Origin: Girardia tigrina
Lineage: Eukaryota
DNA: 53,120 nt
Direction of reading: 5' to 3'
Assembly: GCA_001938485.1 (NCBI GenBank)
Contig: MQRK01241884.1
Span: 1-53,120, forward strand
This document shows, piece after piece, positions 11,632-45,252 of this stretch. A program made the position numbers and the translations under genes. Position 1 is the stretch's first letter. Each line of letters starts with the position of its first letter. Under the pieces are notes generated by a model, which was not told where the DNA came from, made no database searches, and was given only the letters and a program-made list of their open reading frames with translations.

Positions 11632-11644
11632 GTGTTATTTGTAC

Positions 11645-12106
11645 TGTTAAGAGAACTCACATTTGACAGAACATTTATTACATTCACATTTCTTATCATC
11701 TTTATGATGATCAATAGTATTGCTTTCACTTAGATCCATCAATCAATTTTCAATATCTCCCATTATAATCTGAACTATACTTAAGAAGACCACTTTTTTT
11801 AAAAATATTTGATTTAAATTTTATTGGCTGAAATAAAATATTTTTATAGTCATTTTTAAACATTAAATTGATTTTAATTATTTAAAAATTTACAAAAATA
11901 AAATCATTAAAATTATTTAAAAGTTGTAATAAGGAAAATTAAAAATTTGAATATTAAATCTAAATTTAAATAAATTAGTTTCAGATTATAAGAAATTAAA
12001 TATCGATAATCCATCTGGTTAGGAGAAGCACAATCCCAAATCAACATACAACATTTAAACATGCAAAAACTACACAAAAACATCCACACACCAAATATTC
12101 CTCACA
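11645..12106 (+). mobile_element. solo-LTR-like element, family copy A (462 bp)
   Basis: TGTTAAGAGAACTCACA...AAATATTCCTCACA, perfect 5-bp TSD TGTAC (11640-11644, 12107-12111); internal CCATCTGGTTAGGAGA and AAATCAACATACAACATT motifs are shared with other copies. Confidence 0.8.
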
Positions 12107-12736
12107 TGTACTATTTTTCAAATTTTAATTTCGAAAGTCTAAACTATCATTATATGAAGTTATATGAAACAATAGAGATAATTGATGATTATGCAATCAA
12201 TGCGGCATAATTAAGTAGTAGAAAATTATTATTGTTACAATTTTCAATTCACCAAATAATTGATAAAATTTTTAATAGAAAATTTTAACAAAATAAATAA
12301 TTACTTAAAACATGAAAATTACATACCGGTTATATGATTAAAAAAAAATTATTTTTTAAAACCAACAAAAATTCAATAATCATGTAAAACAAAAAAGTGC
12401 ATTAAGGTTAAAATAAGCAAAAATGTATGTTAAAAGGTTTTGATTAATTAAAACTGATTTATTTTTGAAAAGAAAGTATTTATTAAGTCAATTCTTGTAG
12501 TTAATTTTTACAAAAGTAGAAATTTAATTTAAAAAAATTTAAATGGATTTAGATAAAATGATTTAATCGGATTAACGAGTAGAAATTTTTTTAAATTTGT
12601 GTGAAATCATGAGTTCCAATCTTAAATCAAACATTATTGAGGATAATGTTAATGCAACTTACAGTTTTAATTTAGGAGAGTAAATTAATTATTAAATTAT
12701 TAAACATGAAATTATTAAACAATCTTTTATTTTTTT

Positions 12737-13505
12737 ACTACGTTTTTCTTAGCTTGGTTTCTTTTCTGTCTGTCTGTCTGTCTGAAACAAATTTTGCGAT
12801 TGATTTTTCGACCATTTTCAGTCATTTAATTGAGCTGAATTTTTTTATACAGGCTTGCTTCCGATGACAATACAATATTTTAAAACATTTACTTTACGGA
12901 TGTACGGAAAAAATTAATAAATAGAACAAATATTGTGAAAATCAAGTGATAATTAAGTGTAGAAGTATTAAAATTAGGTTTAAAAATTATTTTGAAATAA
13001 AACTTGCTTTTATTAAAATAAAACTTTGTTATTTTGGTTTTANNNNNNNNNNNNNNNNNNNNNNNNNNNNNNNNNNNNNNNNNNNNNNNNNNTTATTTTG
13101 GTTTTATTATCATTTCTGTTATTCGAAATCAATCGAAAGATTTGAATTCCTAAATGATAACTAAAAATAGTTAAATAATATTATTAATAAAAAAAAATTT
13201 ATAAAAACAACTACGTTTTTCAAGCATTACCAATGCACTAAAAAGAGAAAAATAATTTTTTTCTAGACATGTGCGAAATTTTATACCTAACCAAAAACGT
13301 GGGGCATAGAAATGATCGATTGTTACTAAAANNNNNNNNNNNNNNNNNNNNNNNNNNNNNNNNNNNNNNNNNNNNNNNNNNAGTTACTAATAGCAGTAAT
13401 TCAGAAATCCGCCCCACGTTTTTGGTTAGGTATAAAATTTCGCATATGTCTAGAAAAAAAATTATTTTCCTCTTTTTAGTGCATTGGTAATGCTTGAAAA
13501 CTTGA
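12737..13505. mobile_element. Helentron/DINE-like non-autonomous element candidate ending in a ~90-bp inverted repeat
   Basis: ACTACGTTTTT at 12737 and 13210; (CTGT)n microsatellite ~12765-12784 followed by TTGAGCTGAA; inverted arms 13217-13305 / 13411-13500. Two 50-N gaps inside. Confidence 0.4.
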
Positions 13506-14234
13506 GTGTCACTCGTCAAGAATTTTGTAGATGGTTTTCGGATCTTAAAGTTAACTTCCAAACTTCACTCAAAAACTTAGTTAAATGAAGTAATTATAAC
13601 GTATCGATGGAAACTCATTAGCTGCAATACATAAGTAACTTTCTTTAAAAACCGGTTTCTCTAGTTTCAATAATTAGAAAAAATATTTTTATGTTAATAA
13701 GCTGTTTACAATAGCTTGAAAAAAAGTTTTAGAAACAAAATCTGGTAAATTAGAAAAGATAAATACATTTTTATTCAATATTTTAAATAAATTTTCAACC
13801 AACAAAGAAAAGGTAAAGAAAAAATCTGAAAAATTTAGATCAATAATACATTGAGCGCAATTTTATTCAAATATGAAATGGGATTCATTTAATATTTCTG
13901 TGAAGAAATTGAATCAAAACTATATTGATTTCCTGATTTTTAGAATTTTCTTTGATAAAAATGTAATAATAATAAATTGTTTGAAATATAATAAAAAAAT
14001 TACGATATATTTATCATTTATTTATTATATATAAAATTTTTATTTTATTTGTGTGGGAGAAATAAAATGAAAGAAATTTCAATACGAAAAAAATTATTTT
14101 TAGATATTTTTCATTTTGAGAAAGGAAAGAAAATATTTTCTGTATAATTTTGGTTTTATTTGTCGTAAATGGGAAATTTGTTTACTTAAGTAAAAGTAGG
14201 ATAAATTTGTTGCAAAAATAGTTTTTTTTGTTTG

Positions 14235-14560
14235 TGTGAGGAATATTTGAATGTTATTTTAGATTGGTGACTCTTATTAATTTATTTTAATTTAATAAAT
14301 TTTAAATTTTAACGAGAATTAAATAAAAGTTTGTAATTTGGAATTTTATAATTTATACTTTTGTAAGTTAGAATTTGCATGGGAATGTTATATAATAGAA
14401 TTTGAAAGCCAGCTTTTATTTTAAAAATATTGTTTAGTAATTTTAACCAATTGGATTTTTGAAAAATAAATATTTTTGTTTAGAACTGAAATAATTATTA
14501 AAAGAATATATCAATCAAAAAATAATGAATAATTCATAGAAACTTCTAAAGATTGTTGTA
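14235..14560 (-). mobile_element. solo-LTR-like family, truncated copy F
   Basis: Begins TGTGAGGAATATTTGAATGTT (rc of the family 3' end) and has TTTAACCAAT (rc of the internal ATTGGTTAAA motif) near 14445; other end not resolved. Confidence 0.5.
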
Positions 14561-14580
14561 ATAACGATTTTGTTAATTAA

Positions 14581-14798
14581 TATTAAGAACGTAAATTTTT
14601 TTTTGAATTTTTTTTTAATAAGTACAATTTCAATATAATCTTTTACAAAACCTTTGAAATATGACTCTTACATTTTAAGAAATTCAATTATTACTTTGCT
14701 CGAATAATTCGATTATTAAACTCATTTAAAAAATCCAAACCCTAAACAACATACCAAGTACAACATACAATAAACACCATCAGAATATATTTCTCACA
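14581..14798 (+). mobile_element. solo-LTR-like family, short copy G (218 bp)
   Basis: TATTAAGAAC...CAACATACAA...TATTTCTCACA; flanks ATTAA / ATTTA (4/5). Confidence 0.55.
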
Positions 14799-15158
14799 AT
14801 TTATTATATGAAATAACGCAAATAGCTAAACCGTTATTAATTTATTTTAAAAGAACAATTTTAGCCAGGAAAATTAATTAAATTTTAACCTTCCATTATG
14901 ACGCAGCGTCTTTTATATATAATATTTATATTTAAATTTATTAAAACGAAAAGATTTTTATCAGTGAATAAAATGATTATTTTAACAATTGTTTATCTAA
15001 TTAAATGGCGATTAATGCAGAACGATTTGCTCTTTGTTTAAGATTCTAGAGACGGGATGCATAAACGAGCACAATTCAGACATGGCACCTATCCAAATTC
15101 CATAAGCTACACCAATTACCAATTTGTTACAATATTTTTTTTCATAATAGATATTAAT

Positions 15159-16515
15159 TGTTATGAGAACTCACACAATGAGACAATCGATAGTTGAACC
15201 TCCAGTCGTTGACATAGAATTTCTTTGTAAAAAATATTAAAAAAATTACAACAAATTTCATTGGTTAAAATTAAAATAAATATCAATTATTATTAGGTGT
15301 ACAAGTATGAAATGCGCATTTCAGAAAACGGATTGTGCACAATGCAAAAAGTAGGTCAATGTTTAGGCAATGATGTCATAATATTGAGTAATTATGTAGT
15401 GTCTCATACGTAACTCATAAATTGATAAAGCGTTTTNNNNNNNNNNNNNNNNNNNNNNNNNNNNNNNNNNNNNNNNNNNNNNNNNNNNNNNNNNNNNNNN
15501 NNNNNNNNNNNNNNNNNNNNNNNNNNNNNNNNNNNNNNNNNNNNNNNNNNNNNNNNNNNNNNNNNNNNNNNNNNNNNNNNNNNNNNNNNNNNNNNNNNNN
15601 NNNNNNNNNNNNNNNNNNNNNNNNNNNNNNNNNNNNNNNNNNNNNNNNNNNNNNNNNNNNNNNNNNNNNNNNNNNNNNNNNNNNNNNNNNNNNNNNNNNN
15701 NNNNNNNNNNNNNNNNNNNNNNNNNNNNNNNNNNNNNNNNNNNNNNNNNNNNNNNNNNNNNNNNNNNNNNNNNNNNNNNNNNNNNNNNNNNNNNNNNNNN
15801 NNNNNNNNNNNNNNNNNNNNNNNNNNNNNNNNNNNNNNNNNNNNNNNNNNNNNNNNNNNNNNNNNNNNNNNNNNNNNNNNNNNNNNNNNNNNNNNNNNNN
15901 NNNNNNNNNNNNNNNNNNNNNNNNNNNNNNNNNNNNNNNNNNNNNNNNNNNNNNNNNNNNNNNNNNNNNNNNNNNNNNNNNNNNNNNNNNNNGAGGAAAT
16001 GAATTGGGAAGTTTTACCTCATGCGGCTTATTCACCAGACTTGGCTCCTTCAGATTACCATTTGTTTGCATCGATGGGTCACGCACTTGCTAAGCAGCGC
16101 TTTGATTCTTATAAAAATGTGCAAAAATGGGTCGATGAATGGTTCATGGAAAAAAGGAAGACTTTTACTGGCGAGGTAACCACAATTTAAGATATAGATG
16201 GGACAAATGTATCATTAGTAATGGAGCATATTTTGAATAAAGCTTTTTCTATCGTTCTTTTGTTTTTAACGTATTTATTTTCAAAATTTAATCCGCATTT
16301 CATACTTGTACACCTAATAAAAAGAAATATTTTGATTATTTTTTTAAAAATCAAATCGTTCACAATCTCTCAACTATATTCAATTAAAAGTAAATTTAAA
16401 CAATTAATTTTAAATTAAATTTTTTCCAGAAAATAAAAATTAAAATATTAATCAGCCATCTTGGTAGGAGAGTCATAATTCAAAATCTACACACAACATT
16501 CAAATATTTCTAACA
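15159..16515 (+). mobile_element. solo-LTR-like family, copy B, interrupted by a mariner
   Basis: TGTTATGAGAACTCACA...ATTGGTTAAAA [mariner] ...CCATCTTGGTAGGAGA...AAATATTTCTAACA; flanks TTAAT / TTAAC (4/5). Confidence 0.7.
15293..16317 (+). mobile_element. mariner, mauritiana (Mos1-like) subfamily, centre in assembly gap
   Basis: TIR TTAGGTGTACAAGTATGAAATGCG at both ends with TA TSD; [28 protein letters not shown]; frameshift in the A-run near 16150 before FYWRG...RWDKCIISNGAYFE*. Confidence 0.95.
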
Positions 16516-19185
16516 TTAACAACAGTTTTTAAAAACATTTTATTTCCTTTTATAATGTTGAATTAAAGTATTAGTTGTGTACAGATGGTAGAAAGGTAAG
16601 CATAATATTAAGGCAGTTATATCAGAGTTTTGTAACATTATAGAAAAATGTTAATTACATGTATTACTATTGGTGTTATAAAAGAAGTTTCTTCTAGGTT
16701 AAATATTTATCTTTGGCATTGCACTATAAATTCTTTATTAATTTAATTAAAATTTTAAACAAATTTAAATAAAAATAAAAATACTTATAACATTTTACTT
16801 CAAAAATAACATATAATTAATTTATTCTTTACCTGATTTAAGATTATAATTGAGTGTTCAACTTTTTGTTATACTTTATGAAAATTATGAAAATCCTTTT
16901 CGATTTAATTAATGAAATTGCTTTATTTTTCGAAATCATCTTAAATAGTGAATATGAAATTTTAGTTGAAATTTGCACTTCGCCAAAATAATATATTATT
17001 TTTTTTAAATTTCAATGTTTTAAAAAATTAAATGAATATAAATAGTTTTAAAATAAAAAATGATCTTAAAAGGAATTTTAAAATAAATTAAAATTAATTA
17101 ACGGATTAAAATTTATAATATTTGAATACATAATATTTTACATAAAAGGTTTATGGTAAATTTAAATTTAGTAGTTTTATGATAAAATTTTATAAAAAAA
17201 GTTTTAGTTATAATTAAAAAATTATATTTAAGTTAAATTTTACAAATTAAATTGGAAGAAAAATTTAATAGATGGAATTTGGCGAAATAATTGAATTAAA
17301 AAGAAATTTGTTTATATATTTATATTATTGTCATGAATAAAGTTTTGCGATAATTATGATTTCTGAAATTTCGGATAATGAAAATAGCATAAACTCTATT
17401 TACAGTGATTACTAACTGTAACTTGAACTTAAAATCGATTCAATTTTTATAAAAGAAATCATCATGTATCACCAAGTATCAAATCATCTGTATCAGTTAA
17501 AAGAAAACCCCAAAGAAACCTCAATAATGAAGGATTAAAGAAGTGGTGACTGTAATTCAGTCCTTGTTTACTATTTGATGTAATAACCACTCAACCCTAC
17601 ACTTAATCTTTAACACGTTTCTTTTAGAATCAGTTTTTTTTTCTCTTTTTAAAATAAGATTAGTATTTTCATTTGTATAAGTATTGTCTGAATTCAGGAA
17701 TGAAAGTAACTACAAAGATAGTATTCTAATCGGACGGACGAGAGTAAATTTAACGACCCACTTTAATATAAAATCAGTATTGATTCTTTAGAAGAAGATA
17801 CTTAATAAAATATTGCGAACGTAAAGGTTTTATCCTAGAGTTTTGCAAAGAACGACTATAATAAAATTCTTCTTAAGTCACAGGATATGTTTTAGAGTTT
17901 GTTGATACCAGTGAATTATATTAATGACGTTTAAGGATAAAATGTGTTTTGAAAGTCAAAATCAGGGTCCAATTTTAAAAGCTACTTTTACAAAAAGAAA
18001 ATAAAGAATTTTTAAGAAAAAGAGTGGTTGCGAAAAGTTAATGTACATTTCTTCTTTATTTGATCTCCAGGCCAGAAAGGATCACGTTGAGGAATGGGAA
18101 ATGTAGAAGTAAAATATGGAGAGGCAAACATTTTTTTTGAATAAAATGTTTGGTACACAAATTTTGTGTGTACCCCTCTTTGGTTTTTATATATTCTTGA
18201 ATGTAATTTCTTAAGTACATAAATGTAAAAAAGGGTAAACAAAAAACAATAACCTTAGACTTGATAAATTTTAAAATTTGGCACAATTTCAGAACGATTT
18301 TTCTGTATATAAAAGTAAATAAATAAATCAAAAATTATTTAGAAAGTTTATATTTTTTGTATTATTTTTTTTAAAAACATTACTTTTGTATATTCAGTTA
18401 TTTTGATATATTTAATTTTATTTTTCAGAAATTATATTTTCTTGTTTAAATTATTTTAAAAAGACATGTGTTGTGATTGTACAAATGAAGGTTTTATAAA
18501 AGTTGTTAGTTTGAAAAGTCGAAATATTCTTCTTTTGCCTTTAAGTCACCTTGACGCTACCTTGTCATTTCGGTACGTAGGACATTTCTTACGAAGGCAT
18601 TCAGAAGCGGAAAAGATAATTTGGTGCAAACGTATGCAAAAAAATTCCCAACCGGGAAATGTAGGAAATCCATTGTTCTTTTTCCTCGCTATTGTTTTTA
18701 TTCTTCTGTTTCAAATTAAGATTTACCGACTTACTGAGGTTAGTTGATTTAGAGTGTTTTTCATTTAAAAATATGAGTCGATTTTCAGAAATTTTAAGCT
18801 AATAAATATTAGTTTAAAAGGAAAAATAACATTATCCGTCAAAGGATTTAATTATATTCGCAATGATAAATTTTTGGATATTTAAATTATCTATTAGAGA
18901 TTTTTTTAAATGTTTATATTAATTTATTTAAATTAAAATATGTAAAAAATAAAATATTTTTACAATCATATGAGAAGAATTGTTTGGGTTTTACTAACGA
19001 GAGCCTTGTCGTTGTTTGAATATATGAATATAAATTTAAATGTTAAAATTAAAAGTTAGATTCCTTGAAACATTCGTTGGACGCCCTAATTAGAAGGAAA
19101 CTTTGTTAATAATACCAAAATCATAAAGAAAATTCTAGTTATTTTATAAAAAATAAATAATAATATAATGAAAATTAAGGTCATT

Positions 19186-19677
19186 TATTATAAGATTTAT
19201 TCACGAAAGAAAAGTGTTTCAAGAGATAATTCGTCATCTCCGCTCTAAAATTGATGAACATACTCAACCGAGTAGAAATAGTTCGATTTTAAGAGATACT
19301 AAAAATGCCAGGATAATCTTAATGATCAACAAAGAGATTTTAATTATTTATTAATTATTTATTAACTTTAAATAAATCAAAGTTTTATATCAAATTGTTA
19401 AAAATGAATTTAAATTTAAATTTCATTATATTAAACATTTTACACACATATATTATAAAAGCTATAGTTTAAAATTTTCTAAACTAATGAAAATATCTTT
19501 CAGTTAAAATATTGAAATCAGATTATTATCGTTTCGATATTATTATTCGAATAATCGATAAGCGTAATTAAAAAAATATACCAATTTCATCTGGGTTAGC
19601 GAATCACTATTTTTAATTCAATAATCAAATCAACATACTGTATTCTTCCATTCCTACAATTTAAAATATTCCTCACA
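19186..19677 (+). mobile_element. solo-LTR-like family, copy E (5' boundary tentative)
   Basis: 3' part CCAATTTCATCTGGGTTAGCGAATCA...AAATCAACATAC...AAAATATTCCTCACA closely matches the rc of 30523-30640; possible TSD TCATT / ACATT. Confidence 0.6.
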
Positions 19678-21800: not shown

Positions 21801-22335
21801 TATAATTAATTTAAGTTATTAAACCTATCAATAATCTTAAAAAATACATTTAAAATTATTTTACTGCAAAAAAATATTTGTGCTTAAAATTTGACACATA
21901 TTAATGTTTTCAGATACATAGCTTTGATAAAGTATGTATGAAATTTATTTTGAGCCCTCTTTCTTTACTTACCATACAAAATAAAATTCTACTAATTATA
22001 AATGCAAAAATCAACAACGCGACATAAGTACAAAATTAGATTTAAAGAGGAAAACCGATGGATATTCCTGAAAAAACTACTCATGACCTTTACCTTGAGA
22101 GACTCAATGGCCAGTTAATGGTTTTCACAATAGATTTTTTGACTAGTAGAAGTACCCTAGACGCTTATTTAAACTTATATTATATTTTTTATAAGAATAT
22201 TTTTTTCAATAAAATAATAACGTTCGGACACATATTTGCCTTCCTTCTAACCTAAAATTCTTTAATAATTCTTCAGGTAAAACATTTATCATTTTCTAAT
22301 TGTTCCTATTCATTAATAATTTGCATTTATAAATA

Positions 22336-23532
22336 TTAGGTGTACAAGTATGAAATGCGGATTAAATTTTGAAAAGAAATACGTTAAAAACAAAAGAACG
22401 ATAAAAAAAGCTTTATTCAAAATATGCTCCATTACTAATGATANNNNNNNNNNNNNNNNNNNNNNNNNNNNNNNNNNNNNNNNNNNNNNNNNNNNNNNNN
22501 NNNNNNNNNNNNNNNNNNNNNNNNNNNNNNNNNNNNNNNNNNNNNNNNNNNNNNNNNNNNNNNNNNNNNNNNNNNNNNNNNNNNNNNNNNNNNNNNNNNN
22601 NNNNNNNNNNNNNNNNNNNNNNNNNNNNNNNNNNNNNNNNNNNNNNNNNNNNNNNNNNNNNNNNNNNNNNNNNNNNNNNNNNNNNNNNNNNNNNNNNNNN
22701 NNNNNNNNNNNNNNNNNNNNNNNNNNNNNNNNNNNNNNNNNNNNNNNNNNNNNNNNNNNNNNNNNNNNNNNNNNNNNNNNNNNNNNNNNNNNNNNNNNNN
22801 NNNNNNNNNNNNNNNNNNNNNNNNNNNNNNNNNNNNNNNNNNNNNNNNNNNNNNNNNNNNNNNNNNNNNNNNNNNNNNNNNNNNNNNNNNNNNNNNNNNN
22901 NNNNNNNNNNNNNNNNNNNNNNNNNNNNNNNNNNNNNNNNNNNNNNNNNNNNNNNNNNNNNNNNNNNNNNNNNNNNNNNNNNNNNNNNNNNNNNNNNNNN
23001 NNNNNNNNNNNNNNNNNNNNNNNNNNNNNNNNNNNNNNNNNNNNNNNNNNNNNNNNNNNNNNNNNNNNNNNNNNNNNNNNNNNNNNNNNNNNNNNNNNNN
23101 NNNNNNNNNNNNNNNNNNNNNNNNNNNNNNNNNNAAGCTTGCAATTCCACATCTTCGAAACCTTTTCGTGATTTCCCATGGTCCTTATCTGCAACATCAA
23201 AGTCACCACCATGGAAGCGCCGAAACCATCGTTCACATGTATCTTGCGATGGGACATATTCACCATAAACTTCTTGGAGTAATCGGTATGATTCAGCAGC
23301 AGTTTTCTTTAGATGGTAACAAAAAATTAGTACCGTCCGCGAATGCTCCCTGCTTGGCATAAATTTGGACATCTAAAACACAGAANTACAACAATTATTA
23401 AAACGCTTTATCAATTTATGAGTTACGTATGAGACACTACATAATTACTCAATATTATGACACCATTGACCTACTTTTTGCATTGTGCACAATCCGTTTT
23501 CTGAAATCCGCATTTCATACTTGTACACCTAA
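22336..23532 (-). mobile_element. mariner, mauritiana (Mos1-like) subfamily, centre in assembly gap
   Basis: Same TIR as the 15293 copy, TA TSD (22334-22335, 23533-23534); ORF 23372->22413 MSKFMPSREHSRTVLIFCYHLKKTAAES...TCERWF.RF..GDFDV.DK.HGK matches the Mos1 N-terminus as I recall it; ends ISNGAYFE. Confidence 0.95.
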
Positions 23533-23972
23533 TAATATCATTCTGTATACATTGTCTAATAATATATGTTTGATTTTGATATTATATTCAAAAATAATAT
23601 TATTCGATATACATTTCATATAATATAACTTTCAAAATTTATAAAATTCTTTATTTTCATATTTATATTTATTCAGAAAGAAAATAGAAATAAAAAACTA
23701 TAATCTAAATGAAAAAAAGTAAATGCAATAGTTATTATGATTAAAAACATTAATATATAAGATAATTGTTTTGCTAATATAATAATTTAAGGGGAATACT
23801 TAAACAATTATAAGTATAGAGACTGATTTTTGTGAAGAATGATGATGGTGAAGAGTTGCTTCTTCCATAATGAATAAGTCGGTATGTACTGCTTTGGTAA
23901 AGAGTGAGCCATCCACGGAAAAATTCATGAAAGTTTTTTGGATTTGATAATAACAAAATATATGTGATATAA

Positions 23973-24339: not shown

Positions 24340-24900
24340 AATATAGCTCTTTATTTTTTTAACAGATTATAGGACCATAATCATTACAAAATTACAGTCA
24401 TTAAATAATTAAGACATTTTACAATCCATTAACATATGAAAATACTCATATTCTTTTGGAAAATCTTGCACATAGTCCAAATATTTTTGATTAGATTTAA
24501 TTAACAATCTTGTTACAATTATTTGATGATATTGTTTTGAGTCTGGGATATAGTATAAGCGTTTCGTGTCAAGTTGTTTAGGACATTTCGGGAAAAAATT
24601 CTTCAAATGACTAGTATTGTTCATTTAGATTTATCATTTAATTGTATTAATAGAAGCGAAGAGCATATAAAAAATTCAGAACAATTTTAAGAAAAAATGA
24701 ACAATAAAATAAAATAAACAAAATAAAAAGTTACAGGAGAAGAACCCCTACGGACAATGAAACAAATTAAACAAACAAACCTTTCGCCACGAAGTCGTAG
24801 GAACCGTAAAGGCCAAACAGGCCGAGAATATTATAAAATTTATATTTTAACAATATTAAAAAACGCATTAAAGTTGAAAAAACTAAAAAAAATTAAATAA

Positions 24901-25001
24901 TTTTCGGCAAAGTGATTTTCGGTAAAATAATTTTTCGGCAAAATGAATTTTGGCAAAGTGAATTTCCCCGAAGTTATTTTCGGTAAAGTGATAGTGAAGC
25001 C
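24901..25001. repeat. 15-bp subterminal-type tandem repeats of a DNA transposon end
   Basis: About six units of TTTTCGG(C/T)AAAGTGA ending in GTGAAGCC. Confidence 0.55.
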
Positions 25002-25299
25002 TTAAAACGATTCAACCTAGTCATAAAAATATTGATAAAATCTTAACAATATTTTTTAAATTACCTTATTTTATAATTATTTTATTTTTAAACTTGTTTA
25101 TTTTTATTTTTGTACATTAAAAAAACATTCTATTTATAAATTAAAACGTCGTGTTTTTGCAAATGCATTTCACTGCAAACATAACAAATCATTATTTTTG
25201 TACGAAAATTTAGTAAATTTTTCTATTTAATAAATTAACTAATTACTTTGATATAACATTGTAACAAAAAAATTTACTAATATATTAATAATTGTAGAT

Positions 25300-26080
25300 G
25301 CAAAACCTTATTATTTAATTCACGAACTCGACAATTTTTAAAAAATTTTTTTTTATAAATTATATGAAAAATTTTGTATTTAATATGAAAAAATATCAAT
25401 TTCATATGAAAAAACTCAATTTAATTTGAAAATATCGATTTAATATGAACAATATCCATTTAATAAGAAAATTATCTATTTAATACAAATATTCAATTTG
25501 ATATGAAAAATTATCGATTTAATGGGAAAAAAATATCAATTTTATATGCAAAAAATGAATTTAATTGTAAAAAATATCGATTTAATAAGATAAAAAAACT
25601 TCTAGAATACAAATGTTTGCAAATCAGCATTCCACGAAGGAAGAAGTTTAATTAACTATAAATAAAATTTAACATTTGGAGTCTATTTTGCATAGTAAGT
25701 TAAAATTTTTTCATATTTAATTTATATTTTTTAATATTTTAATTGATAATCTTTCATGATAAACTCAAATTTTTGTCATATTAAACACATATGTCATATT
25801 AAATACCCATTTTCATATTAAATATATATTTTTCATAGAAAATTGATTTTTTTCATAATACGTACATAATGTTTCATTTTAAATTGAGAAATTTTTCATA
25901 TAGTTAGTGAATTCGGTAAAAATTGACTAGTTCATAAATTCGGCAATTACACTATTTAGTAAACTGTTGCCGATTTCACGAATTCGGCAAAATATTTTGC
26001 CTAATTCGTGAATTCGGCAATTTTTCTTGCTTAATTCACGAATTCGGCAAAATGATTGCAAATTCTGCATAACATATATA
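25300..26080. repeat. foldback-like element: inverted ~20-bp minisatellite arrays plus a 30-bp tandem array
   Basis: TTTAATATGAAAAAATATC-type units at ~25355-25595, their reverse complements (TTTTTCATATTAAA) at ~25700-25900, then TTCACGAATTCGGCAA units with ~30-bp period at 25905-26055. Confidence 0.6.
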
Positions 26081-26602: not shown

Positions 26603-26634
<32 letters not shown>

Positions 26635-28450: not shown

Positions 28451-28910
28451 TGTAAGGAATATTTGGAATGTTGATGTTTTGTGTCGTGTTTGCATGTTTA
28501 AATGTTGTATGTTGATTTGTGATTGTGCCTCTCCTAATCAGATGGATGATTTATATTTAAATTCTTATAATCTGAAACTACTTTATTCAAATTTAGATTT
28601 AATATTCAAATTTCAATTTATTCTTGTTGTAATTTTTAAATACTTTTATTAATTTTATTATTGTAAATTTGTCAATAATGAAATCGAATTAATATTTTTG
28701 AATGATAAAAGAAATTTTATTTTAACCAATAAAATATAAAGTAAATATTTTAAGTATAATAATTCATTTCAAGTTAATTCAGATTTGGAACGAGAAGTAT
28801 TAAACATTGATAGATGAATTTGAGTGCAGGCATTATTACGAATTGTAGTAAAGATGATCCAAATTGTGATTGCAATAAATGTTGTAACAAATGTGCGAGT
28901 TCTCTTCACA
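28451..28910 (-). mobile_element. solo-LTR-like family, copy C (460 bp)
   Basis: TGTAAGGAATATTTGG...CTCCTAATCAGATGG...TTTAACCAAT...GAGTTCTCTTCACA is the rc of copy A, with a close match over 28451-28620 vs 11940-12106; TSD not preserved. Confidence 0.8.
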
Positions 28911-30307: not shown

Positions 30308-30522
30308 TGAGAGGAATATTTTAAAATTTGGTATTTGGAAATGTGTTTCTTCCGCCAAGATGGAAAATTTGTATTTTTGATGTTTGTGATGAGTGCTCGG
30401 GTATGATTTACATTTTAAATAACCACTTAAGATATTTACAAATGAAAAATAATATTAACTATTTTTTTTAATTATAAATTAAATTTTAAAACCAATTAAA
30501 TTAAAGTTCGGAAAATAAAAAT
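30308..30522 (-). mobile_element. solo-LTR-like family, partial copy H
   Basis: TGAGAGGAATATTTTAAA...CCGCCAAGATGG...AAACCAAT, rc of family motifs; runs directly into copy I. Confidence 0.55.
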
Positions 30523-31034
30523 TGTGAGGAATATTTTAAATTGTTTAAATGTGTAAATGCATGGATGCTGTATGTTGATTTAAGTATGTTGAATTTAGAA
30601 TGATGATTCTCCCACCCAGATTGAAATTGGTATTTTTTTATTAAGTTTAAAGTGATTGACTATTCGAACATAATTAAAATAATCATTTTATAAGTTCATA
30701 TCTTTAATTTCAGAATTAAAATTGAGTTTAATAATTTTTAGTAAAATTTAAATTAAATGCATTTTTAATAATTTGATGTCATTTTTATTATTTTGGGATT
30801 TATTAAAAAATGGTAAAAAATAATATTTTTAATTAATATTTTTTAGAGGTTAAAATAATAGAGTTATTTTAAAAAATAATTTAGAAAAATTGTTCGAATA
30901 ATCATGATTAAAAACAGAAATAAGAAAACCAATTAGAACGATGGCAAACGATGAAACACCTTCTGAGAGTCTTAATGACTCTAAATGTAATTGCAATAAA
31001 GATTTAAACGAGACTTGTTTAAATGTTCTTAATA
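30523..31034 (-). mobile_element. solo-LTR-like family, copy I (512 bp)
   Basis: TGTGAGGAATATTTT...GTATGTTGATTT...CTCCCACCCAGAT...TGTTCTTAATA with 5-bp TSD AAAAT (30518-30522, 31035-31039). Confidence 0.7.
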
Positions 31035-31772
31035 AAAATCATTGAAATAATCAGTAAAATTTTAGATAAAATTATAAATTCGATTAATTGAAAGTTTTTA
31101 AAATGGAAATCATTAAAATTAATTGTTCTTAATTAAAATATTTTTGAAATATATTAAAATATTATATTTTTAAAAATTTCTAAAATAATCGTGAAACCAT
31201 AAAATTAATTTAATCGTATAGAATTGAAATCTTTGTGGGAATTATTATTTTTTAATTATTCATTCGAAAAACTGAACAAATTAGTTTGATGTTAACTGAT
31301 GAAGGTTGTTTTTGTCAGTTGTTCTAAATACCAATCAAATTTTGATAAAAATAAAATATTTTAATACTTATTATTATAATTACCATTATTATTCCTATAA
31401 TGAAAAAGAAATCATAACACATTTATTTTTGAATTTCTGAAGTGTTTTATTTTTTTGAATCATCGAGGGTTAAGGTATATTTGAAGATGAAGTTCAGCAT
31501 TCACATCATATCACCGAGGTCATTTTTATAGACAAATTTTAACATTAGTTTGTGTTTTGTTAATAAATAAATTTTAAAAATGATGTTCTTGAATAAAATA
31601 ATTTACTATGTTTTTAAAAATTGATAATTTCCATCGAAGTTTAAATTATACAATTTTTTTAAGCATATATAATTTTAATTCGATCATAAAAGTATTATAA
31701 AACATCAAAAAGTTAACTTTAATAATTATATAAAGATTATTAAGATATGGTTATGATTCTACGTCTTTCTCT

Positions 31773-32331
31773 GATTAACAAATAGGGGAAATAATTGAGG
31801 AAGCCGGAAGCATTGTAGACATGTTCTTTTGTATTTTATAATCGTTTAGCATCTCTGATTCTTCGAGGGATCTGGATCTCATAATTAATTCTGAAATCAT
31901 CAAGATTAACTTGGTAGATTTTAACTTGCCAGCGACATGGAGGCTTGGCCTGAGAATGGTTTGAGATGGGAGTTTTATTAACATTGTTTCTATGTCGATC
32001 GGGTGTCCACGATAAGAACGGTGTCAACATGGTTATATAGTCGGAAGGCAGTATAACCAGGTTGTTTAAATAGAGAGGCACCGGCTCAGGGGAGAAACCT
32101 GCAGGCGAAACTCTCAACGTCATTCAGTATTGGGATTGCATCTGTGAATAGGGCAATGTTGATGGCCTCGTCAATATGACCAGACTCCGGTCTTTTTTTT
32201 GATTAACAAATATGGGAAATAATTGAGGAAGCCGGAAGCATTGTAGACATGTTCTTTTGTATTTTATAATCGTTTAGCATCTCTGATTCTTCGAGGGATC
32301 TTGATCTCATAATTAATTCTGAAATCTTCAA
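31773..32331. repeat. 131-bp direct repeats (31773-31903, 32201-32331) flanking a 297-bp insert
   Basis: Copies differ at 3 positions; the insert 31904-32200 is more GC-rich and ends in a T-run. Confidence 0.9.
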
Positions 32332-33067: not shown

Positions 33068-33235
33068 GAGGATTCGAGGAATTTAGAAGTACCGCAGACA
33101 AAGATTATTTTGAAAAGAAGATGACGAGTCAAAAGATTTTGGAACATGCAGCCAGTCCTACCCATAAAGAATGTAGTTCCGAAGATGTTATGAAGACAAC
33201 GATGTCAGAAATAATACCGAAATTCCTCTATTTAG
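33068..33235 (+). CDS. DUSP10/puckered-like, coding exon 2 (not in the ORF track)
   Basis: aag|GAGGATTC...TATTTAG|gtatgt, 168 nt, phase 1-1, open: (G)GFEEFRSTADKDYFEKKMTSQKILEHAASPTHKECSSEDVMKTTMSEIIPKFLYL(G), i.e. end of rhodanese, linker and start of the DSP domain. Confidence 0.92.
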
Positions 33236-35259
33236 GTATGTAAAAATTACTTTTAATTTAATATTTGTTATTGTTAATTTGATGAAGGAAAGGTTATACA
33301 ATTTGAAATTCTTTGAATTATTATTTTTGTGTAACCTTTTAAAGTTGAGAATGATTAAAAAAATAACAAGGTTTTCATAAATTTTTATGTCCGTACAAAA
33401 ATGATATTTGACAAAAATATTTGACAAATATTCTACTTTTGATATAGACTGGTGTGGTTTTATTTTTTATAATTTTAATAAATCTGTTCTCTCATTGAAC
33501 GATCCTGCTGATGATGTTCTGATAAGAACGAAACATCTCGTGAATTGTGACAAAATAAGTAGTTACTTTAAAGATGTTTCTTCGTTTTTCACTATGTTAA
33601 ATCAATTAAATATATTTATTACTTTTTATGTTATTAAATTGAAATATCTAGATTTTTGGTTGTCTCAATTTTTATTTCAAAATATTTTCAGAAATATTAA
33701 AATTATGTAAAAGTCATCTTCAACAAGGAGGACATTGTTTGTATATAAAAATACAAATGAACAAACAAGAAAGGATAATCATTAAACGTTAACAAATGAT
33801 ATTGGCTGATACGTCTTACGTAAGGAGAACTTACTATTCTTTTCTTCTTCTATTCTTTAGAGAAAAGACAACTAACGAATATTTTTTTCAATAAAAGATA
33901 TAATAAAAATGAATATGTTGCATTTTTGAATAAAAAATCTGGATTACAAATGACCGCTTTTCAGGAAAATATAATTAATACATATAAGGAGCGAAAATAA
34001 TAATTTTTCTACCTCTTTTGCAGATGGATACAATTTCTTTCATAATTTCTAAGCCTTCCATCGGCGACACTAATTGCAAAAAAGTCATCGATAAATTACC
34101 AGAAAAATGTCAATTGAAACTGCGACGATTTAGGTTAAATATAGTTAGAAATCACGATGTATGTTGTGGGAGAACATCAAACAAGCTACAATGTAACCGT
34201 ATCGACCTAGATTTTGGGCTTGGGGAAACAAATAACTAAAGTAATTAACAAATCGAATGAAAGATTTACATCGAAATTCATAAATCTAGCATGGAGAAAG
34301 AGGAATAGATATTTATGAAATAAATAAATGAAATAGAAACAAAAGTGTTTTAGGTTGTAGTCGTTCATGTAGCAACTACCACCAGGAGCAGTCTTGATTC
34401 ACATCATTCCAGTCAATGGTCATATTTAGGTGAGACTGGTCTGACCCTTAATCAAGGACTAGTCAACATCTTGTGTTCTATATTGCGATATTTATTTCAA
34501 TCTTAAAATATTAAATTTATCGTATTATAGTTTTATATTATAGTTCCTATTTTACTTAATTTAACATACATTTTTGTAAAAGTAGTTGTTTGATCCCATT
34601 ATAAAATTATGCCTTTTAGTAAATGATTTTTGAAATTTAGAAAGGGGTTTTGATTTTATAAATATTTCTTGTGATATTATTCGTGTGTTACTTTCCTCGT
34701 AAAATAAAATTTTAATTTAAACATAATAAAATATTGCGAAATTTCAAATGACTTTCCGTCCGATTTTAGCAGATTTGCTACGTACCTAAACATGTCATAT
34801 TAAAGTACTGAAAAATCACAACGTCAATCGTATCATAATGCAAATAATTTGATTTTAACTCTGATTGCGCTTTTGGTTATAAAAGCTCACTAACGTCCAT
34901 GTTAAATCAGTAACACACTTAAATTTGTCTTTCGTTTGATGTATTTAAAGTAAATATTTTAATAAAATCATTAAATGAATGAATAATACTATAAGCTTAA
35001 ACAAGATACAGTTTCAAATTTACATTAAAATCAATTACACAACATTTCCATTTATTAATTAAAATAAAACATGTTAAGATTATTACCAACATTATTATAT
35101 CTTCTGACATTTTTATTATTATTACGACTCAAATTAAATATACAGAATTTAAAAGTCCTAAAGTATATATTGTGTGATATATCAGAAGGAGGATTAATAA
35201 ATTTATCAAAACTACAGGGAAAACTTTATATTTACTTTTTTTAATACTTCATCGTAAAA

Positions 35260-35860: not shown

Positions 35861-38727
35861 ATACAGTCAAATAATAAGTTTTTTATTAGTTAATTGTCAA
35901 TCTTAGGAGTAATAAAAATTTTAAAGAAGTATTAGTAAAATAAGTCTAACTTTAGTTTGATCAAACAACTTTTATAATGTAGAAGAATATCATAAATTCA
36001 TAACCAAACTTAAAGAAAAAAGTTTGTAATTCTTCCAGACCATCATTTTTGTGTAAATCTTTAAAAAATAACGTAAATGGTTTCGTTGATCCAATTGTGT
36101 AAATAAAAATTTTTTCGGCTCATAACGGCAATTATTCGAAAATGGAATTAGTTTATATACTGGAAAACGCATACTTAAATTTTTGATACCGTAAAACAAA
36201 AATTGAAAATTCAAGAAATTATTACATATTTTTTCTTAAAAGAAAAATAAAATATCTTTTATAAAAACGTTTACAAAATTTTCTTTAAAAAATTTTTATC
36301 AAAAAAATTTACATTTAAAACTAAAAGAAATAATTGTTTTAATTTTTAAAATTTGTGACCCTAAAAATATCTCTAAAACTGAATTATTTGAAAATTAAAA
36401 AAATATTTATGATATGTTTTTAGTGATATTTAAAATAAATAAAATTTCTATGTACAAAGAGATATTGCGATACGAAAATATAAATAAATTAAATATAAAT
36501 AACTCAACATTTCTGATGAAAAATTTCATTATTGAAAAATATTTTATTAAAACTATTAATTTTTGATGAGATAATATTAATTTATAAAGTTGAATTATTC
36601 ATTTTTATGAGACAAAAAACAAAAGATAAACTCGTTCAATTTCGGTGAGAAATAATTTTCCCACAAATTTTATTTTTCAAACTCGGCGATATTTTATGGA
36701 GTCTCGAAATCGTTTATTTTATGAAGAAAGAAAGGAATAAAGAAACCGCTTCTTGTCAATTAAAACAAGAAATTCGAGTTTTAGTCATTAGAGAAATAAA
36801 ATTAGGATTATTTTTCATAATTGTTAAAATGGGTTTCTTAAAAGAAGAATGACAGTATATATGGACTCCGTTTGCTTCCAAGGACGGGTACTGAATGTGT
36901 GAAATAATAGGTTGTCTTGTTTTATTATTTGTAAATTATATAAATAATATTTTATAATGACAAAAAATGAATAAGAAATATCAAAATGATCGAAATTGGC
37001 TCCATTTTCATGAAAAAAGTTGTAAATATAAACTTTATTGGATATTGTAACAATCAGTTAGATTTATTTTTTTATTTTTATTTTTTTGGTATGTTAATGT
37101 ATTATTTTTATCATTTTGATTCTTGTGTGTTTATTAAATAAATAAACTTTATTTATATTTCGAAGAGGCCATTTAATCAAAGAAGGAGATTTAAAAAGTA
37201 AAGAAAAGGCATTGAAAGATGCGCAAATATTTCCACTGTCAATATAAAATTATAATCTTAATTTTAATTATTTAAAATTATTCAGAATCAGAATTTTTGA
37301 TTCCCGACTATTATTCGTTTCAATTACTGAGCAATCATCCATTACAATTACTCAACAACGATTAATTTGAATTACCGCACAATTGACAATTACAATTAAC
37401 AATATAATCCACTACTGAACAGAATTTGAAAAAGACATTTTTTTTAGAATAAAAGGAAACAAATTTTATCTTTCGATCTATCAAATACAAAAAATGAGTC
37501 ACATACTCCAGTCTCTTTTGTCCAAAGCTAGTCCATTCTAAAGAATCACTGATTGCAATATCCGAATAAAGACAGTAATATTTATTCAAGTTACTTTAAC
37601 TACTGACTCAATCTATTTGGTGAAAAACTTAATTATATCATCCATACTTTCCGTTATTTGTTGGTATATTTAATAACATATTTGATCATAATTTTGTGAT
37701 TGTTATTTTAATTTAAGTGAGCTCAAGGATTTCATCATATTTCTGATACATAATCCTTTAGCCCATTTGCAATTACTCACATTAATTACAAAACTACGTT
37801 ACATATTAATATATTAACATATATTAATTGTTTAATTAAAGATTTTAAAGATAGAGTCGGCTTTGCTGTGCGAACTTTTAATATTAATTAATAGTTGCAG
37901 TTTCCAAAGAGTTAAACCATGAATCTGGTTTTCAGATTTAATTGTCATGAGTGTCAAGACTCATACGCAAAGGACTCTCTTTTGGTTTTGGTTTGGAATG
38001 TTTAAAAATCTGTTATATCAATGGACGATCTCCCTGATGATGTTTTGATAAGAATGAAACATGTCTTGAATTGTGAAATAATAAATGGTTTTTACATTTA
38101 TCTAAGCAGTCAGTCGATCATGTCAGTCCATCTTCATATTTTATTATAAGTAGTTTGATCAACCTTCACGGTAAATATAAACCCTTTAACGCAATAATAA
38201 CTGAGCAATAAATCACATTTATAATTATAAAAATATGTTGATTTTGTGATCTAATCCAAATTTATATTTAATTGCATTCTTTTCTAATGCCGTATTGTTA
38301 AAATTGTATATGTATCACGTTTTTGTTCCTAAAATTAGAAATGATTATTTTGGATTTGAAATATGCAATAAATTTTAACTGTAAAAATTAATCTAAATAA
38401 AAGAAATAATAAAAAAATCGTAAATATTTTAGCATGCTAGAAAAAATATCGTGATTAATGGATCCATTAGGAAACCTGATGAATTTAAAACCGAATAAAT
38501 ACTCAATTAAACAATGTAACTATGTCAGTGATAATGTTCTACACTTAAATATGTCCTCATCTTTCTTAGGTTCAATATCAAGAGATGGAATCATAACACC
38601 AAACATATATGAATAACACAATAAGTGTTTTTTTCTACCAAATTTTTGATGAATCTTTTTTGTTTTTTTAATCTTAAATATTATAAATAAAAATATTACA
38701 AATATGAATATTTAATAAATTTTAATT

Positions 38728-40094: not shown

Positions 40095-40514
40095 TATTAA
40101 GAACACCAATATGACTATTAATATTTTTATTATTACAAGTTTGATTGTCCTCAGGACAATCTTTGTCAAAGCTTTCGTAAGATTGCTTCAGTCTATTAAT
40201 AAATGACTTCAATCTTATTATCTGATCAAATGGAGAATCAAATAAATTGTTAAAATATTTACTCAAAATTTTATTGGTTAAAAATTAAAATGATTTTTAA
40301 TTATTTAAAAAATATTAAGTCAATTTATTTATTTAAAAATTGTAAATGAAATTAATAAACTTATTTAAAATTTTTCAATTATTTTAAATTAGAAATAAAT
40401 TTAAACATTGCATATTTATAAATAATAAGAATTAAAATATTAATTATCCATGTGGATAGGAGGGATACAATTCCAAATCAACATACAACATTCAAACACA
40501 CAATATTCCTCACA
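40095..40514 (+). mobile_element. solo-LTR-like family, copy D (420 bp)
   Basis: TATTAAGAACACC...ATTGGTTAAAA...CCATGTGGATAGGAGG...AAATCAACATACAACATT...AATATTCCTCACA with perfect 5-bp TSD CTCTC (40090-40094, 40515-40519). Confidence 0.8.
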
Positions 40515-40869: not shown

Positions 40870-42060
40870 ACTACAGCGGGATATTTTTTGACCTAAAAAA
40901 TTAAAATTTTGACTTTATATTTCCTAGATTTTGACTTTTTTTGACCTTAAAAAAATTAGTTAAGAGAACAAGTATTTCAAAAATTGTATTAATAACACGT
41001 AGAGTAAAAAATGTTCAAGAAGTGGAATTAAAATTCTGCAATGCATAATAACGCACATTTCCCACATCAAAGTTACGATTATCTCGCAAAATTCTTTTCA
41101 GAATGGAAAACCTCCTTTCTACCGCACCACTTGTTTGCAGTGCTTCCTGCAGTAAAGCATAAAAGTGAGGGGACACATCGTTTCTCGCCATCTTCATTTT
41201 GTCCATAATTTCACTTCTGTCAAAAAGTTTATCCCAGTATTTTCTAATGGCACACGGATCCACCCCAACATGAAATATTTTTTATGTCTTTAACTGCCTG
41301 ATGTATATGATAGTTTGAAGACTCGAAGCATTCTACAAAGTTACAAGCGATTTATATTGTAAAATGTTAATAAAGTATTTAGAAAGAGTAGAACTTGCGA
41401 CCGCCTCTTTGGCATGCGCAAGAAGGAGCTGTTTGCATTCTGTGGAATTTACAATCTGTCAAACTGTTGGCTTTCTACTCCGTGTATTAGAAAGCTGCAT
41501 GCAACCCTGTGGTCCATCTCGTGAAAACCGGCTGAGATGATTGTTCAATAATTTTAAGTAGGCCTCGCCGTTCTGGGTTCTTTACTGCGAGGGCTTTGAC
41601 AATCAAGTGGCTTGTTGTATGCGGGTGCAAATTTTGTCTTCACTTGCATTTCACAATTGTTCAGTAAATGAGCTCCGCAGGTTACATGAAGCAATTGTGA
41701 ATACATTGTTTTCAGAACAATGATAATGAATAAAGAAGAAATACAATTATGATAACCTAGAACAATTTAAAACAGAAAAAAATTAATTGAATATTTGAAC
41801 AGATTTTGAATATGAGAATGAATAAAGAAAAAATAAAGTAAAATAAACTAGAACAATTTAAAATTAAAAAATCTTATTGAAACAAAACAGTGTTTTCTAA
41901 ATTTTTAAGACTTTTTTTAAAGTTAAAACTTTTTTAAATTGATATTATTGACTTAATTAGACTTTTTTGACGTATTTTGACAAAATTGTTTCATATTTTG
42001 ACTTAATTTGTCTAATTTTGACTTACTTTTTCTTTTTTTGAAATTTTTTGACTTAACGAA
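40870..42060 (-). mobile_element. internally deleted hAT element
   Basis: ORF 41263->41015 QTSGAVERRFSILKRIL (hAT dimerisation motif); upstream HVTCGAHLLN and PVFTRW fragments; TTTGAC(T/C) subrepeats at both ends. Exact termini not resolved. Confidence 0.75.
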
Positions 42061-43231: not shown

Positions 43232-44139
43232 ACTTAAAAATGCATACTTGTATAGTTATTTAACATTTGTCCGATGCACGCCTCCTAAAAGGTTTAGAGG
43301 CCGCTAAACTAACAAACAGACTAAGAAGTTTGTAATGGAAAATGAGAGCGAGTGGATCTCTATCTTCCATTAACTAAATAAATTAATAAACACAAAGTAA
43401 TCTGAATTTACAAAGTAAAATAATTTCTGAAGCTACTTTTTGAACTTTTAGGGTAGAGGTAGATCCAATGTGTATAACAAAAGAAATATGAATTTCATTA
43501 TTGTTTCCAATAGAACATCACTTATAACTTAAATTTTTAAAGCTTCACCATGCCATTTAACAAATAGAGAGTTAATTAAAATATTATGACGAAAGTATTC
43601 CTGTCTAGTGCTGTGATCTGTAGAACATTCAACTAAAAAGCATAATAAAGGATTAGAAAAGTAACCAAATTTTGAAACCCATATTTTCCAATACCTAGGA
43701 TACATCCTCTATACAAAATGGAATGTCAAAATTCAATTGTGACTGATAAATTCAAAGTTCAAATATCTGGATTGTGATAAATTTTAAGCAATTGTATTCC
43801 TTTGAAAATATGAGTACATCATAACACCTGAACATGTAGGACACTTGACAATCAATTGACATTCTAACATATCTCATTAATATTTAGTACTTTGAATAAA
43901 CTATTAAATTGACATCTAATAAAGTAATCGTTTACGTAAATTGGTTGGTTATTTATCAAAAGAAATGGGTTTCTAAAGACAAACAATCAAATACTCTCTT
44001 AAAGAAGAAATACAAAGTACATATGTGTTGTCATTTCGCGAACAAGGCAAGTATGTCTTCGTAATTAGGTATTAACAACATTTATTATAATCGAAATCAG
44101 TATTGTTTTCACAACAATTCTTTTTTTTATCGTTGAGCA

Positions 44140-44256
44140 AAAGTGCCCGGTTGGAACATAAATAAATTCGCCGCATGCATCGGCCCGAAGGCGTCCTCTG
44201 CACCGACCCTGGTTGCCACAGGGGTTCTTTCACTAGCGGCCTCCCCCCGCACCCAT
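44140..44256 (-). ncRNA. candidate structured RNA element, family unknown
   Basis: GC-rich island; on the minus strand GCC(UUCG)GGC and CCCUG-U-G(GCAA)C-CAGGG hairpins enclosed by GCCGC/GCGGC and an outer imperfect stem. Confidence 0.35.
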
Positions 44257-44779
44257 CAATTGAGTGAACGAATTGAGTGAATCACATTCACTAATCGACA
44301 TCTCTCTTGATTAATAAATAAATATATAATGCATAAATATCAAATTATCTTAATCAATTTGACACTTAAAATTTTTTAACATATTTCTAAGAAATTGCGT
44401 TTAAAATTATTATTTATTGTTTGCAAAACTATTTATGTGATTTATTCATTAAAAAAATCAAAATCAATTTAAAATTTTACAACAATATTAAATTACAATT
44501 AAATCTAAACATTAAAAATTAAAATTATATTTATGAGGAGTTATTTAATTTTCTTACTTGACAAATTTATTAAAAAATTAATTTATTTATTAATTTATTT
44601 AAAATATTACAGCAATTTTGTATTACAATTGCAGTAAATTAAATATTTAAGTAAATATTATTTGATAAAGAGATTATATTACAATCGAATTAAGGATTAG
44701 ATTTAATTTATAAGTTTGTAATAAAATAAATATTTTTTTAAATTTTAGAGTAATTTGATATTAAAAAATAATTAAAAAT

Positions 44780-44951
44780 ACCCTAATTTACTGCGGATAA
44801 CTCATGGGTAATATGGTGGAAAAAGATGACTTTTAGAAAAATGTATGGGGGCGGGTTTTCAATAGGAACTTAATTTTCAAAAAGTACTAAATGATCAAAA
44901 ATTGAGATGCGAGTTATACACGGGTGTGAGTTATCCGCAGTAAATTAGGGT
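44780..44951. mobile_element. 172-bp MITE (Tc1/mariner-pogo type)
   Basis: Perfect 25-bp TIR ACCCTAATTTACTGCGGATAACTCA / TGAGTTATCCGCAGTAAATTAGGGT; subterminal GAGTTAT repeats. Confidence 0.85.
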
Positions 44952-45159
44952 TAACCAAATTAAATATTAATTTTTAAATTTGTATTTTTTTTACAAATTC
45001 GATCAGAATTTAAAATTTAAAATATGTCTACGAATCGATTATTAAAAAGGAATCTGAAAATTTCTTTGAATTTATTTGTAATAGAAATAATTAATTTGTG
45101 TAAATAATAATATTATAGAAAACGATTAACAATATTAAATTAGTTGCAGATAATAAGAA

Positions 45160-45252
45160 TCAAAATATAAATCAGTCATCTGCGAATGAAAGGAACGATT
45201 CCAAATCAGCACACAACATTCAAACATAAAACATTCCGAAAATTCTTCAGGA
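45160..45252 (+). mobile_element. solo-LTR-like family, degenerate 3' fragment J
   Basis: CATCTG...ATTCCAAATCAGCACACAACATTCAAAC...AATTCTTCA matches the family 3' motif block. Confidence 0.5.

Follow-up and report, generated by a model that had tools for sequence, protein, structure and literature searches.

Very probable solo long terminal repeats of a retrotransposon lineage in the introns of a predicted DUSP gene of Girardia tigrina

Animal Ty3/Gypsy retrotransposons have long terminal repeats (LTRs) that carry an integrase attachment consensus, TGTTRNR, at their ends (PMC3601003). Solo LTRs of this group (Metaviridae; Sushi, rGmr1, Mag and CsRN1 types) are described as a few hundred bp long, with imperfect ends of about 7 bp, a polyadenylation (polyA)-like hexamer in a constant position, motifs that stay conserved while their surroundings vary, and conservation mainly at one end (PMC3601003). 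Here, we analyze a family of short AT-rich repeats from Girardia tigrina that resembles these solo LTRs in the listed features and lies in the introns of a predicted DUSP gene. The window, i.e., the whole stretch of DNA analyzed, comprises 53,120 nt (contig MQRK01241884.1 of assembly GCA_001938485.1, positions 1 to 53,120 of the forward strand). Very probably, the copies are solo LTRs that derive from several diverged subfamilies of an LTR retrotransposon lineage. Ends and motifs point to Ty3/Gypsy as the likely parent lineage, Bel/Pao being also possible, and the parent may have been an autonomous or a non-autonomous two-LTR element. The family differs from the Ty3/Gypsy solo LTRs in a TA end in four of seven complete copies and in its very low GC content, and the likeness is one of published features, not of library sequences.

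Other LTR systems share parts of this pattern. Bel/Pao elements retain short TG..CA inverted ends as the family does, whereas the TATATA box described for plant Copia elements is not common to the copies (PMC3601003). Solo LTRs of Gypsy and of Bel/Pao or Copia are indistinguishable without internal genes. Target-site duplications (TSDs) of 5 bp are usual in both Bel/Pao and Copia. The tomato element TARE1 is an example in which LTRs with TA..CA ends amplify normally and leave solos with and without TSDs, but it is a plant Copia element with a 194-bp LTR and 0.05 solos per intact element, whereas in our family all copies seen are solos (PMC3701649). The cestode ta-TRIM is likewise small, non-coding and integrase-inserted, and has many TSD-flanked solo LTRs, some of them promoters (PMC4558846). 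A TRIM differs from the family in having two LTRs around a primer-binding site (PBS) and a polypurine tract (PPT), and the TSDs of ta-TRIM are mostly 4 bp long (PMC4558846). In our copies there is no internal LTR pair (the longest internal direct repeats are AT-rich and 14-35 nt long in all five copies examined), and TRIM membership therefore fails; the copies could be solos of a TRIM-like parent. A grass TRIM is said to be a 292-bp element. The mammalian MaLR solo LTRs (THE1/MST/MLT) are 350-500 bp long with TG..CA ends and 5-bp TSDs, very numerous, overwhelmingly solo and divided into many subfamilies. They belong to the vertebrate class III lineage, and the analogy concerns the high solo fraction only.

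The AT-rich repeats form a real family. The window contains about 11 copies of 20-23% GC (Table 1, from which the copy letters are taken), and both ends are definable in seven of them. Motif and profile searches bear out the start coordinates of all copies in the original prediction as well as its length range of 218-512 bp. A 13-nt end motif occurs seven times at no more than one mismatch (shuffled sequences: mean 0.42, maximum 2) and an 18-nt box eight times at no more than three mismatches (shuffle mean 0.57), in seven cases inside copies and once at 3474. The predicted chain of motifs thus recurs with respect to the end motif and the box, but its CCAAT part is missing in the copies at 14581 and 19186 and its central boxes in the copy at 14235. 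As proposed originally, a profile of four copies was searched against the window, and it returned five further copies (E 1.6e-14 to 8.5e-5). Leave-one-out profiles recovered seven of 11 candidates at 22.8-158 bits, with a maximum of 6.4 bits in the reversed window. Copy G (30308) scored 11.3 bits, and copies B (14235), C (14581) and K (47554), which these profiles missed, were accepted on terminal motifs and pairwise scores. A very decayed candidate for a twelfth copy, ending at 47703 (47594-47703), reached a z of at most 2.6 and was not counted, and there is weaker similarity near copy J at 44401-44510.

Individual copies provide further detail on borders and nesting. Copy A is inserted in one unit, the second, of a locally duplicated tandem pair. 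The first unit lacks it and thus constitutes a paralogous empty site, by which the borders of copy A are confirmed. Copy F is nested in copy G and copy C probably interrupts copy B near one end of the latter; this nesting was absent from the original prediction. For copy B, the position of the right end (~14842) is not certain, and no TSD is seen there. For the probable second piece of copy G, the terminal 9-mer at 31125 occurs four times in the window, the other three occurrences being in family copies. Altogether, the copies cover 3,817 of 39,391 bases (9.7%) in the two DUSP introns; intron 1 has eight copies and intron 2 has three. The strands are split 6:5, which carries no information on the orientation of the element. 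A restriction to introns (11 copies per 39 kb of intron and none in the ~13 kb outside; p ~0.04 by a hand estimate) and a preference for nesting (two of 11 copies within other copies) are too weak to claim.

The TSDs were scored in the seven two-ended copies; the copies at 14235, 30308, ~45160 and 47554, whose two ends are not both fixable, were left out of the count and show no TSD where they were inspected. As had been predicted, three of the seven have perfect 5-bp TSDs (TGTAC, CTCTC and AAAAT) and three match at four of five positions (14581, 15159 and 19186), and the remaining copy (28451) matches at one. Random intronic 5-mers match fully at a frequency of 0.0036 (0.36%) and at four or more positions at 0.040 (4.0%). 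The excess of matches in the window is thus above chance (p 1.7e-6, or 1.9e-4 with five offsets permitted). Duplications of 4 or 6 bp as alternatives yield only 0-1 matches in copies A and I, and a 6-bp comparison across all copies gives 0-4 matching positions of six. The targets are varied in sequence and none corresponds to RTATAY. Recombination between different elements would explain the unmatched flanks of copy D. Both solo LTRs without TSD and LTRs with TA..CA ends are documented (PMC3701649).

All 14 ends of the seven complete copies match five or six of the six defined positions of TGTTRNR, and the closest attachment forms are those of Sushi and rGmr1 (TGTNANR..CNTNACA). The last CA of the CACA end is invariant, the opposite end is TG or, in the four copies mentioned above, TA, and no copy is TA..TA. 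Inverted symmetry between the ends is imperfect over about 7 bp and ceases after about 8-13 nt; no copy has a long terminal inverted repeat (TIR). TG/TA..CA ends together with 5-bp TSDs agree with the integrase-type footprint named in the original prediction, and the TGTTRNR ends and the 5-bp TSDs support the solo-LTR option that it had raised.

Conservation is distributed unevenly along the copies. Among five copies, the 99 nt at the CACA end are best preserved, with an identity of 0.70-0.88. The AT-rich middle has 0.53-0.71, and the ~130 nt adjoining the TRTTAAG end have 0.41-0.54 except for the last bin (0.48 in shuffled sequences). The most divergent part is hence the TRTTAAG side and not, as had been claimed, the AT-rich spacers. 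The far halves on this side fall into unrelated subtypes, whereas the CACA half is conserved; in copy E, for example, the CACA half clusters with copy F and the other half is unrelated to the remaining copies. This contrast resembles the usual difference between R-U5 and U3, and conserved boxes amid variable spacers are the normal pattern of an LTR family (PMC3601003). The TRTTAAG end is marginally preferred as the 5' end with respect to transcription; by analogy with the usual pattern, the variable half would then be U3 and the conserved half R-U5. Some copies group differently in their two halves, but with scores this weak no case for template switching can be made, and a mosaic origin was not adopted.

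The conserved motifs resemble promoter and terminator signals. RRCCAAT is found in a single orientation in seven of ten copies examined (A, D, I, F, L, B and G); its background frequency is 0.28 per kb per strand. In five of eight copies, a CATCT box is preceded at 17-21 nt by a polyA-like hexamer, and the other three have one-mismatch variants at this place. On the opposite strand, AATAAA occurs 35-40 nt from the far end in four of eight copies (background 7% per 26 nt). This AATAAA sits in otherwise unconserved sequence, and CCAAT reads forward if the element is read in that direction. Rfam and ARAGORN revealed neither an RNA family nor a tRNA in the copies (no tRNAs were found at all), and the sole Rfam match in the window, a 7SL copy, does not belong to the family.

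These observations are consistent with the following course of events. An integrase would recognize the attachment ends of about 7 bp on a two-LTR cDNA and insert it with a 5-nt stagger, which would give the 5-bp TSD; the footprint is observed, and from it we infer the enzyme and the two-LTR intermediate. Recombination between the LTRs would then delete the interior and leave one LTR between the TSDs, and copy D may be the product of recombination between two elements. Finally, the remnants acquire deletions and later insertions, as is observed for copy F in copy G and for copy L/H, which is split by a mariner that we take to be Mos1-like (15293-16320, spanning an N gap). The original prediction had placed the start of L/H correctly and overlooked both this split and the continuation at 16321-16515. 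The CCAAT box and the polyA-like hexamers would represent the LTR promoter and terminator, selected while the parents were active. Lengths of 420-512 bp are within the mean LTR lengths of the Gypsy/Ty3 clade training sets (174-695 bp).

The copies differ by 17-29% over aligned positions, with large indels in addition, and the best pair (D and A) is 83% identical. Those with perfect TSDs (A, F and I) differ from each other by 20-23%, and their TSDs contain no mismatch in 15 positions (P 0.024 at 22% divergence); over six TSDs, there are three mismatches in 30 (P 0.078). Since the TSDs of A, F and I are intact while these copies diverge, most of the divergence probably predates insertion. This modestly suggests that it arose between parent lineages, as in LTR subfamilies, and not during the decay of a single MITE-type burst.

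Several observations weigh against solo LTRs. No parent is seen: within the window, no copy is joined to a PBS, a PPT or coding sequence, as a two-LTR parent would show, and for a stretch of 39 kb, the ratio of about 11 solos to no full element is high. A primer site beginning with TGG is found in none of the copy flanks (0/8 and 0/9), and there is no clear PPT, the best purine run consisting of 10 A-rich bases in 12 and lying inside copy G. A six-frame motif scan of the window and a Pfam search of the 140 longest of its 266 N-free frames gave no gag, reverse transcriptase or integrase. The original prediction had likewise noted no gag/pol remnant, and it is missing here as expected for solo LTRs. 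The two scans yielded mariner/Tc1 and DUSP domains and three stray matches below cutoff; sensitivity on short decayed pieces is low, and small gag/pol relics could escape, since several DNA-transposon pieces that are visibly degraded had no Pfam match either. Furthermore, the hexamer counts are not independent because the copies form 3-4 related groups, and 35% of 30-nt windows with at least 85% AT hold a polyA-like hexamer. Neither a GT-rich U5 nor a TATA box is common to all copies, and U3-R-U5 is not assignable because polyA-like signals are present on both strands.

The check suggested originally, for a pair of copies that flanks a PBS, gag, pol or PPT, found none in the window. The pairing of adjacent copies into a single decayed element, with one as its 5' LTR and the other as its 3' LTR, was rejected by comparison of the outer 5-mers; only one of 26 same-strand cross pairs shares its outer 5-mer (AAAAT), and this on a copy with its own TSD. 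Motif scans of a prokaryotic genome collection had no matches and are uninformative. No description of the family was found in the publications consulted, and a full-text search cannot show absence from Repbase or Dfam.

An alternative is a single-unit non-autonomous element that has attachment ends only, lacks a two-LTR stage and is moved whole by an integrase-like enzyme. All copies are single, TSDs adjoin both sides directly in six of seven, the copies are dense (3,817 copy bases in 39,391 intron bases), coding remnants are absent, and the window holds a second family of like build. Solo LTRs, however, predict the same features. There is no near-identical burst (best pair 83%, lengths 218-512 bp), the copies are heterogeneous and carry promoter- and polyA-like motifs unneeded by a cut-and-paste MITE, and no article title describing such an element turned up in the literature search. 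Moreover, the transcript of a solo LTR lacks U3 and the primer site, and to our knowledge retroviral-type integrases do not excise DNA, both of which count against such a unit. We thus regard this explanation as very improbable and see nothing that favors the self-moving miniature unit of the original prediction.

We consider it very unlikely that the copies are a non-autonomous cut-and-paste DNA transposon (MITE) of the Ginger1, Ginger2/TDD or IS3EU/GingerRoot type or of an undescribed short-TIR DDE family. Ginger likewise has TGT..ACA ends, Dictyostelium TDD-4/5 have 5-bp TSDs and IS3EU has TA..TA ends; our family has no TIR, 5-bp TSDs and two unequally conserved ends. Ginger1 is described with TIRs of 40-270 bp and 4-bp CCGG/CCGT targets (PMC2836005), whereas the copies have 5-bp TSDs of varied sequence. 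Ginger2/TDD termini are TGTNR, with RTATAY targets in animals (PMC2836005). The family termini fit, and the 5-bp TSD matches only the Dictyostelium members TDD-4/5, as Ginger2 in animals has 4-bp TSDs; its TIRs are 45-297 bp long, and even a 252-bp non-autonomous member keeps a 52-bp TIR (PMC2836005). In the absence of a long TIR, Ginger1/2 membership thus fails, and with an imperfect end symmetry of ~7-8 bp the Ginger2/TDD option of the original prediction is not upheld. IS3EU/GingerRoot elements have TA..TA and occasionally TG..CA termini and usually a 6-bp TSD (PMC10045372), while the family lacks TA..TA copies and matches at 0-4 of six positions in the 6-bp comparison. Chance resemblance has practically no standing, even though the window is AT-rich, three of 11 candidates escaped the leave-one-out profiles and copy middles are 82-94% AT, because the motifs are far more numerous than in shuffled sequences, the top leave-one-out score is 158 bits, compared with 6.4 bits at most in the reversed window, and both the TSD statistics and the empty site of copy A argue otherwise; it is refuted for eight copies and may still hold for the assigned extent of copies B and C.

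Table 1. Copies of the repeat family and exons of the host gene in the window. Copy strands follow the orientation of the original prediction (TRTTAAG end first).
Feature	Positions	Strand	Evidence
Copy A, complete, 462 bp	11645..12106	+	TSD TGTAC/TGTAC; leave-one-out 140.8 bits
Copy B, degenerate	14235..14842	-	exact 13-nt end motif, CCAAT box; pairwise z 5.7 to copy I
Copy C, 218 bp, internal deletion, no CCAAT	14581..14798	+	TSD 4/5; pairwise z 4.4-4.5 with copies A and I
Copy L/H, pieces 15159-15292 and 16321-16515	15159..16515	+	TSD TTAAT/TTAAC, 4/5; leave-one-out 48.7 bits
Copy E, 492 bp	19186..19677	+	TSD 4/5; leave-one-out 22.8 bits
Copy D, complete, 460 bp	28451..28910	-	leave-one-out 158.1 bits; flanks 1/5
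Copy G, pieces 30308-30517 and probably 31040-31134	30308..31134	-	profile 24 bits; no TSD
Copy F, complete, 512 bp, nested in copy G	30523..31034	-	TSD AAAAT/AAAAT; leave-one-out 44.4 bits
Copy I, complete, 420 bp	40095..40514	+	TSD CTCTC/CTCTC; leave-one-out 85.4 bits
Copy J, fragment of conserved half	45121..45250	+	leave-one-out 53.6 bits; one end not fixed
Copy K, TGTTAAG-end fragment only	47451..47554	-	E 8.5e-5; z 7.7-7.9 to D; subtype of A, D
Host DUSP/MKP exon, rhodanese-like domain	10619..11060	+	domain match E 3.7e-5
Host DUSP/MKP middle exon	33068..33235	+	P0001 residues 135-191
Host DUSP/MKP exon, start of DSPc domain	50633..50815	+	domain match E 1.8e-7

The window is eukaryotic DNA of 26% GC and includes 1,367 N bases. 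Judged by its domains, the host gene is predicted to be an animal MAP-kinase phosphatase (DUSP), the last exon of which is beyond the window end. A related protein of 320 amino acids (P0001) aligns gap-free to the three exons (residues 1-135, 135-191 and 186-251), and the two intervening stretches of 22 and 17 kb are therefore DUSP introns. Exon 3 is 87% identical to P0001, the sole protein returned by sequence and profile searches. A search with exon 1 gave no long homologue, P0001 as a query found no protein besides itself, and a language-model search returned eukaryotic rhodanese clusters only, at scores below 0.9. A tandem duplication (10906-11480 / 11478-12550) has copied the 3' part of exon 1 into intron 1, where this piece is 79% identical and carries a stop codon. 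For Dugesia, a genome preprint reports low GC, SINE/7SL sequences and more than 90% Gypsy among the LTR elements (10.64898/2025.12.11.693146).

The window contains a second family of similar build, with TG..TA ends and no TIR (51462-52140, +, 679 bp; 16953-17404, -, 452 bp). Its TSDs are CCACC/CCACC (5/5) for the 51462 copy and 4/5 for the 16953 copy. The former lies within a Tc1-like element (TIRs 51107-51162 and 53048-53103), the transposase frame of which it interrupts; its borders and 5-bp stagger are thereby fixed. Its CCAAT box is only 29 nt from one end. Kinship with the main family was not accepted, as its sole basis would be a 52-nt AT-rich match (E 1e-6), and AT-rich matches of this kind are numerous. 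Two mariners, presumably Mos1-like (15293-16320, +; 22334-23537, -), have ends that are 91-98% alike and both span assembly gaps. The youngest repeats are hence those left unclosed by the assembly, and full-length LTR elements may therefore be under-assembled, too.

Other repeats belong to further classes. Broken DNA transposons are found at 1397-2518 (+), 48887-49980 (-), ~3700-6146 (+), 41015-41281 (-) and 45889-46185 (+), among them two mariners supported by Pfam, and hAT-like and MULE-like pieces recognized by eye with no Pfam match. Two small MITE-like elements with long TIRs at 44780-44951 and 13217-13500 (25 bp identical and ~90 bp at 97%, respectively) illustrate the form that TIR elements take in this genome. 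A full-length match to 7SL/SRP RNA (31909-32195, +, 159.6 bits) ends in a T run and is either a retrocopy or a 7SL SINE; on its two sides stands a direct repeat of 138 bp, 96% identical (31766-31903, 32194-32331) and unusually long if it is a TSD. A cluster of short, partly inverted tandem arrays with 15-, 20- and 30-nt units (24895-26053) is possibly a foldback or Helitron-like remnant, and a two-copy repeat (33474-33564 / 38001-38090) is 82% identical over 91 bp.

If it were true that the unit moves alone, it would be a bridge between LTR retrotransposons and integrase-type DNA transposons, the tie between which is a long-discussed evolutionary link (PMC2836005). In that improbable case, elements with attachment ends only would number hundreds of thousands genome-wide if the density holds and would bring a CCAAT promoter module with them into introns. 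Another member would then be the second TG..TA family, which would make a class, a prospect we rate just as low. If the copies are solo LTRs, as we consider very probable, they are ordinary genome debris and the finding has annotation value only. About 10% of the DUSP introns would be LTR debris, which could be concealed by low-complexity masking or stay without classification, and the LTR content of such AT-rich animal genomes may therefore be undercounted. Moreover, the copies strew CCAAT boxes and polyA-like signals across introns that belong to a phosphatase gene of the ERK-pathway type. In a tapeworm, solo LTRs function as promoters (PMC4558846); in the copies described here, the motifs are promoter-like in sequence.

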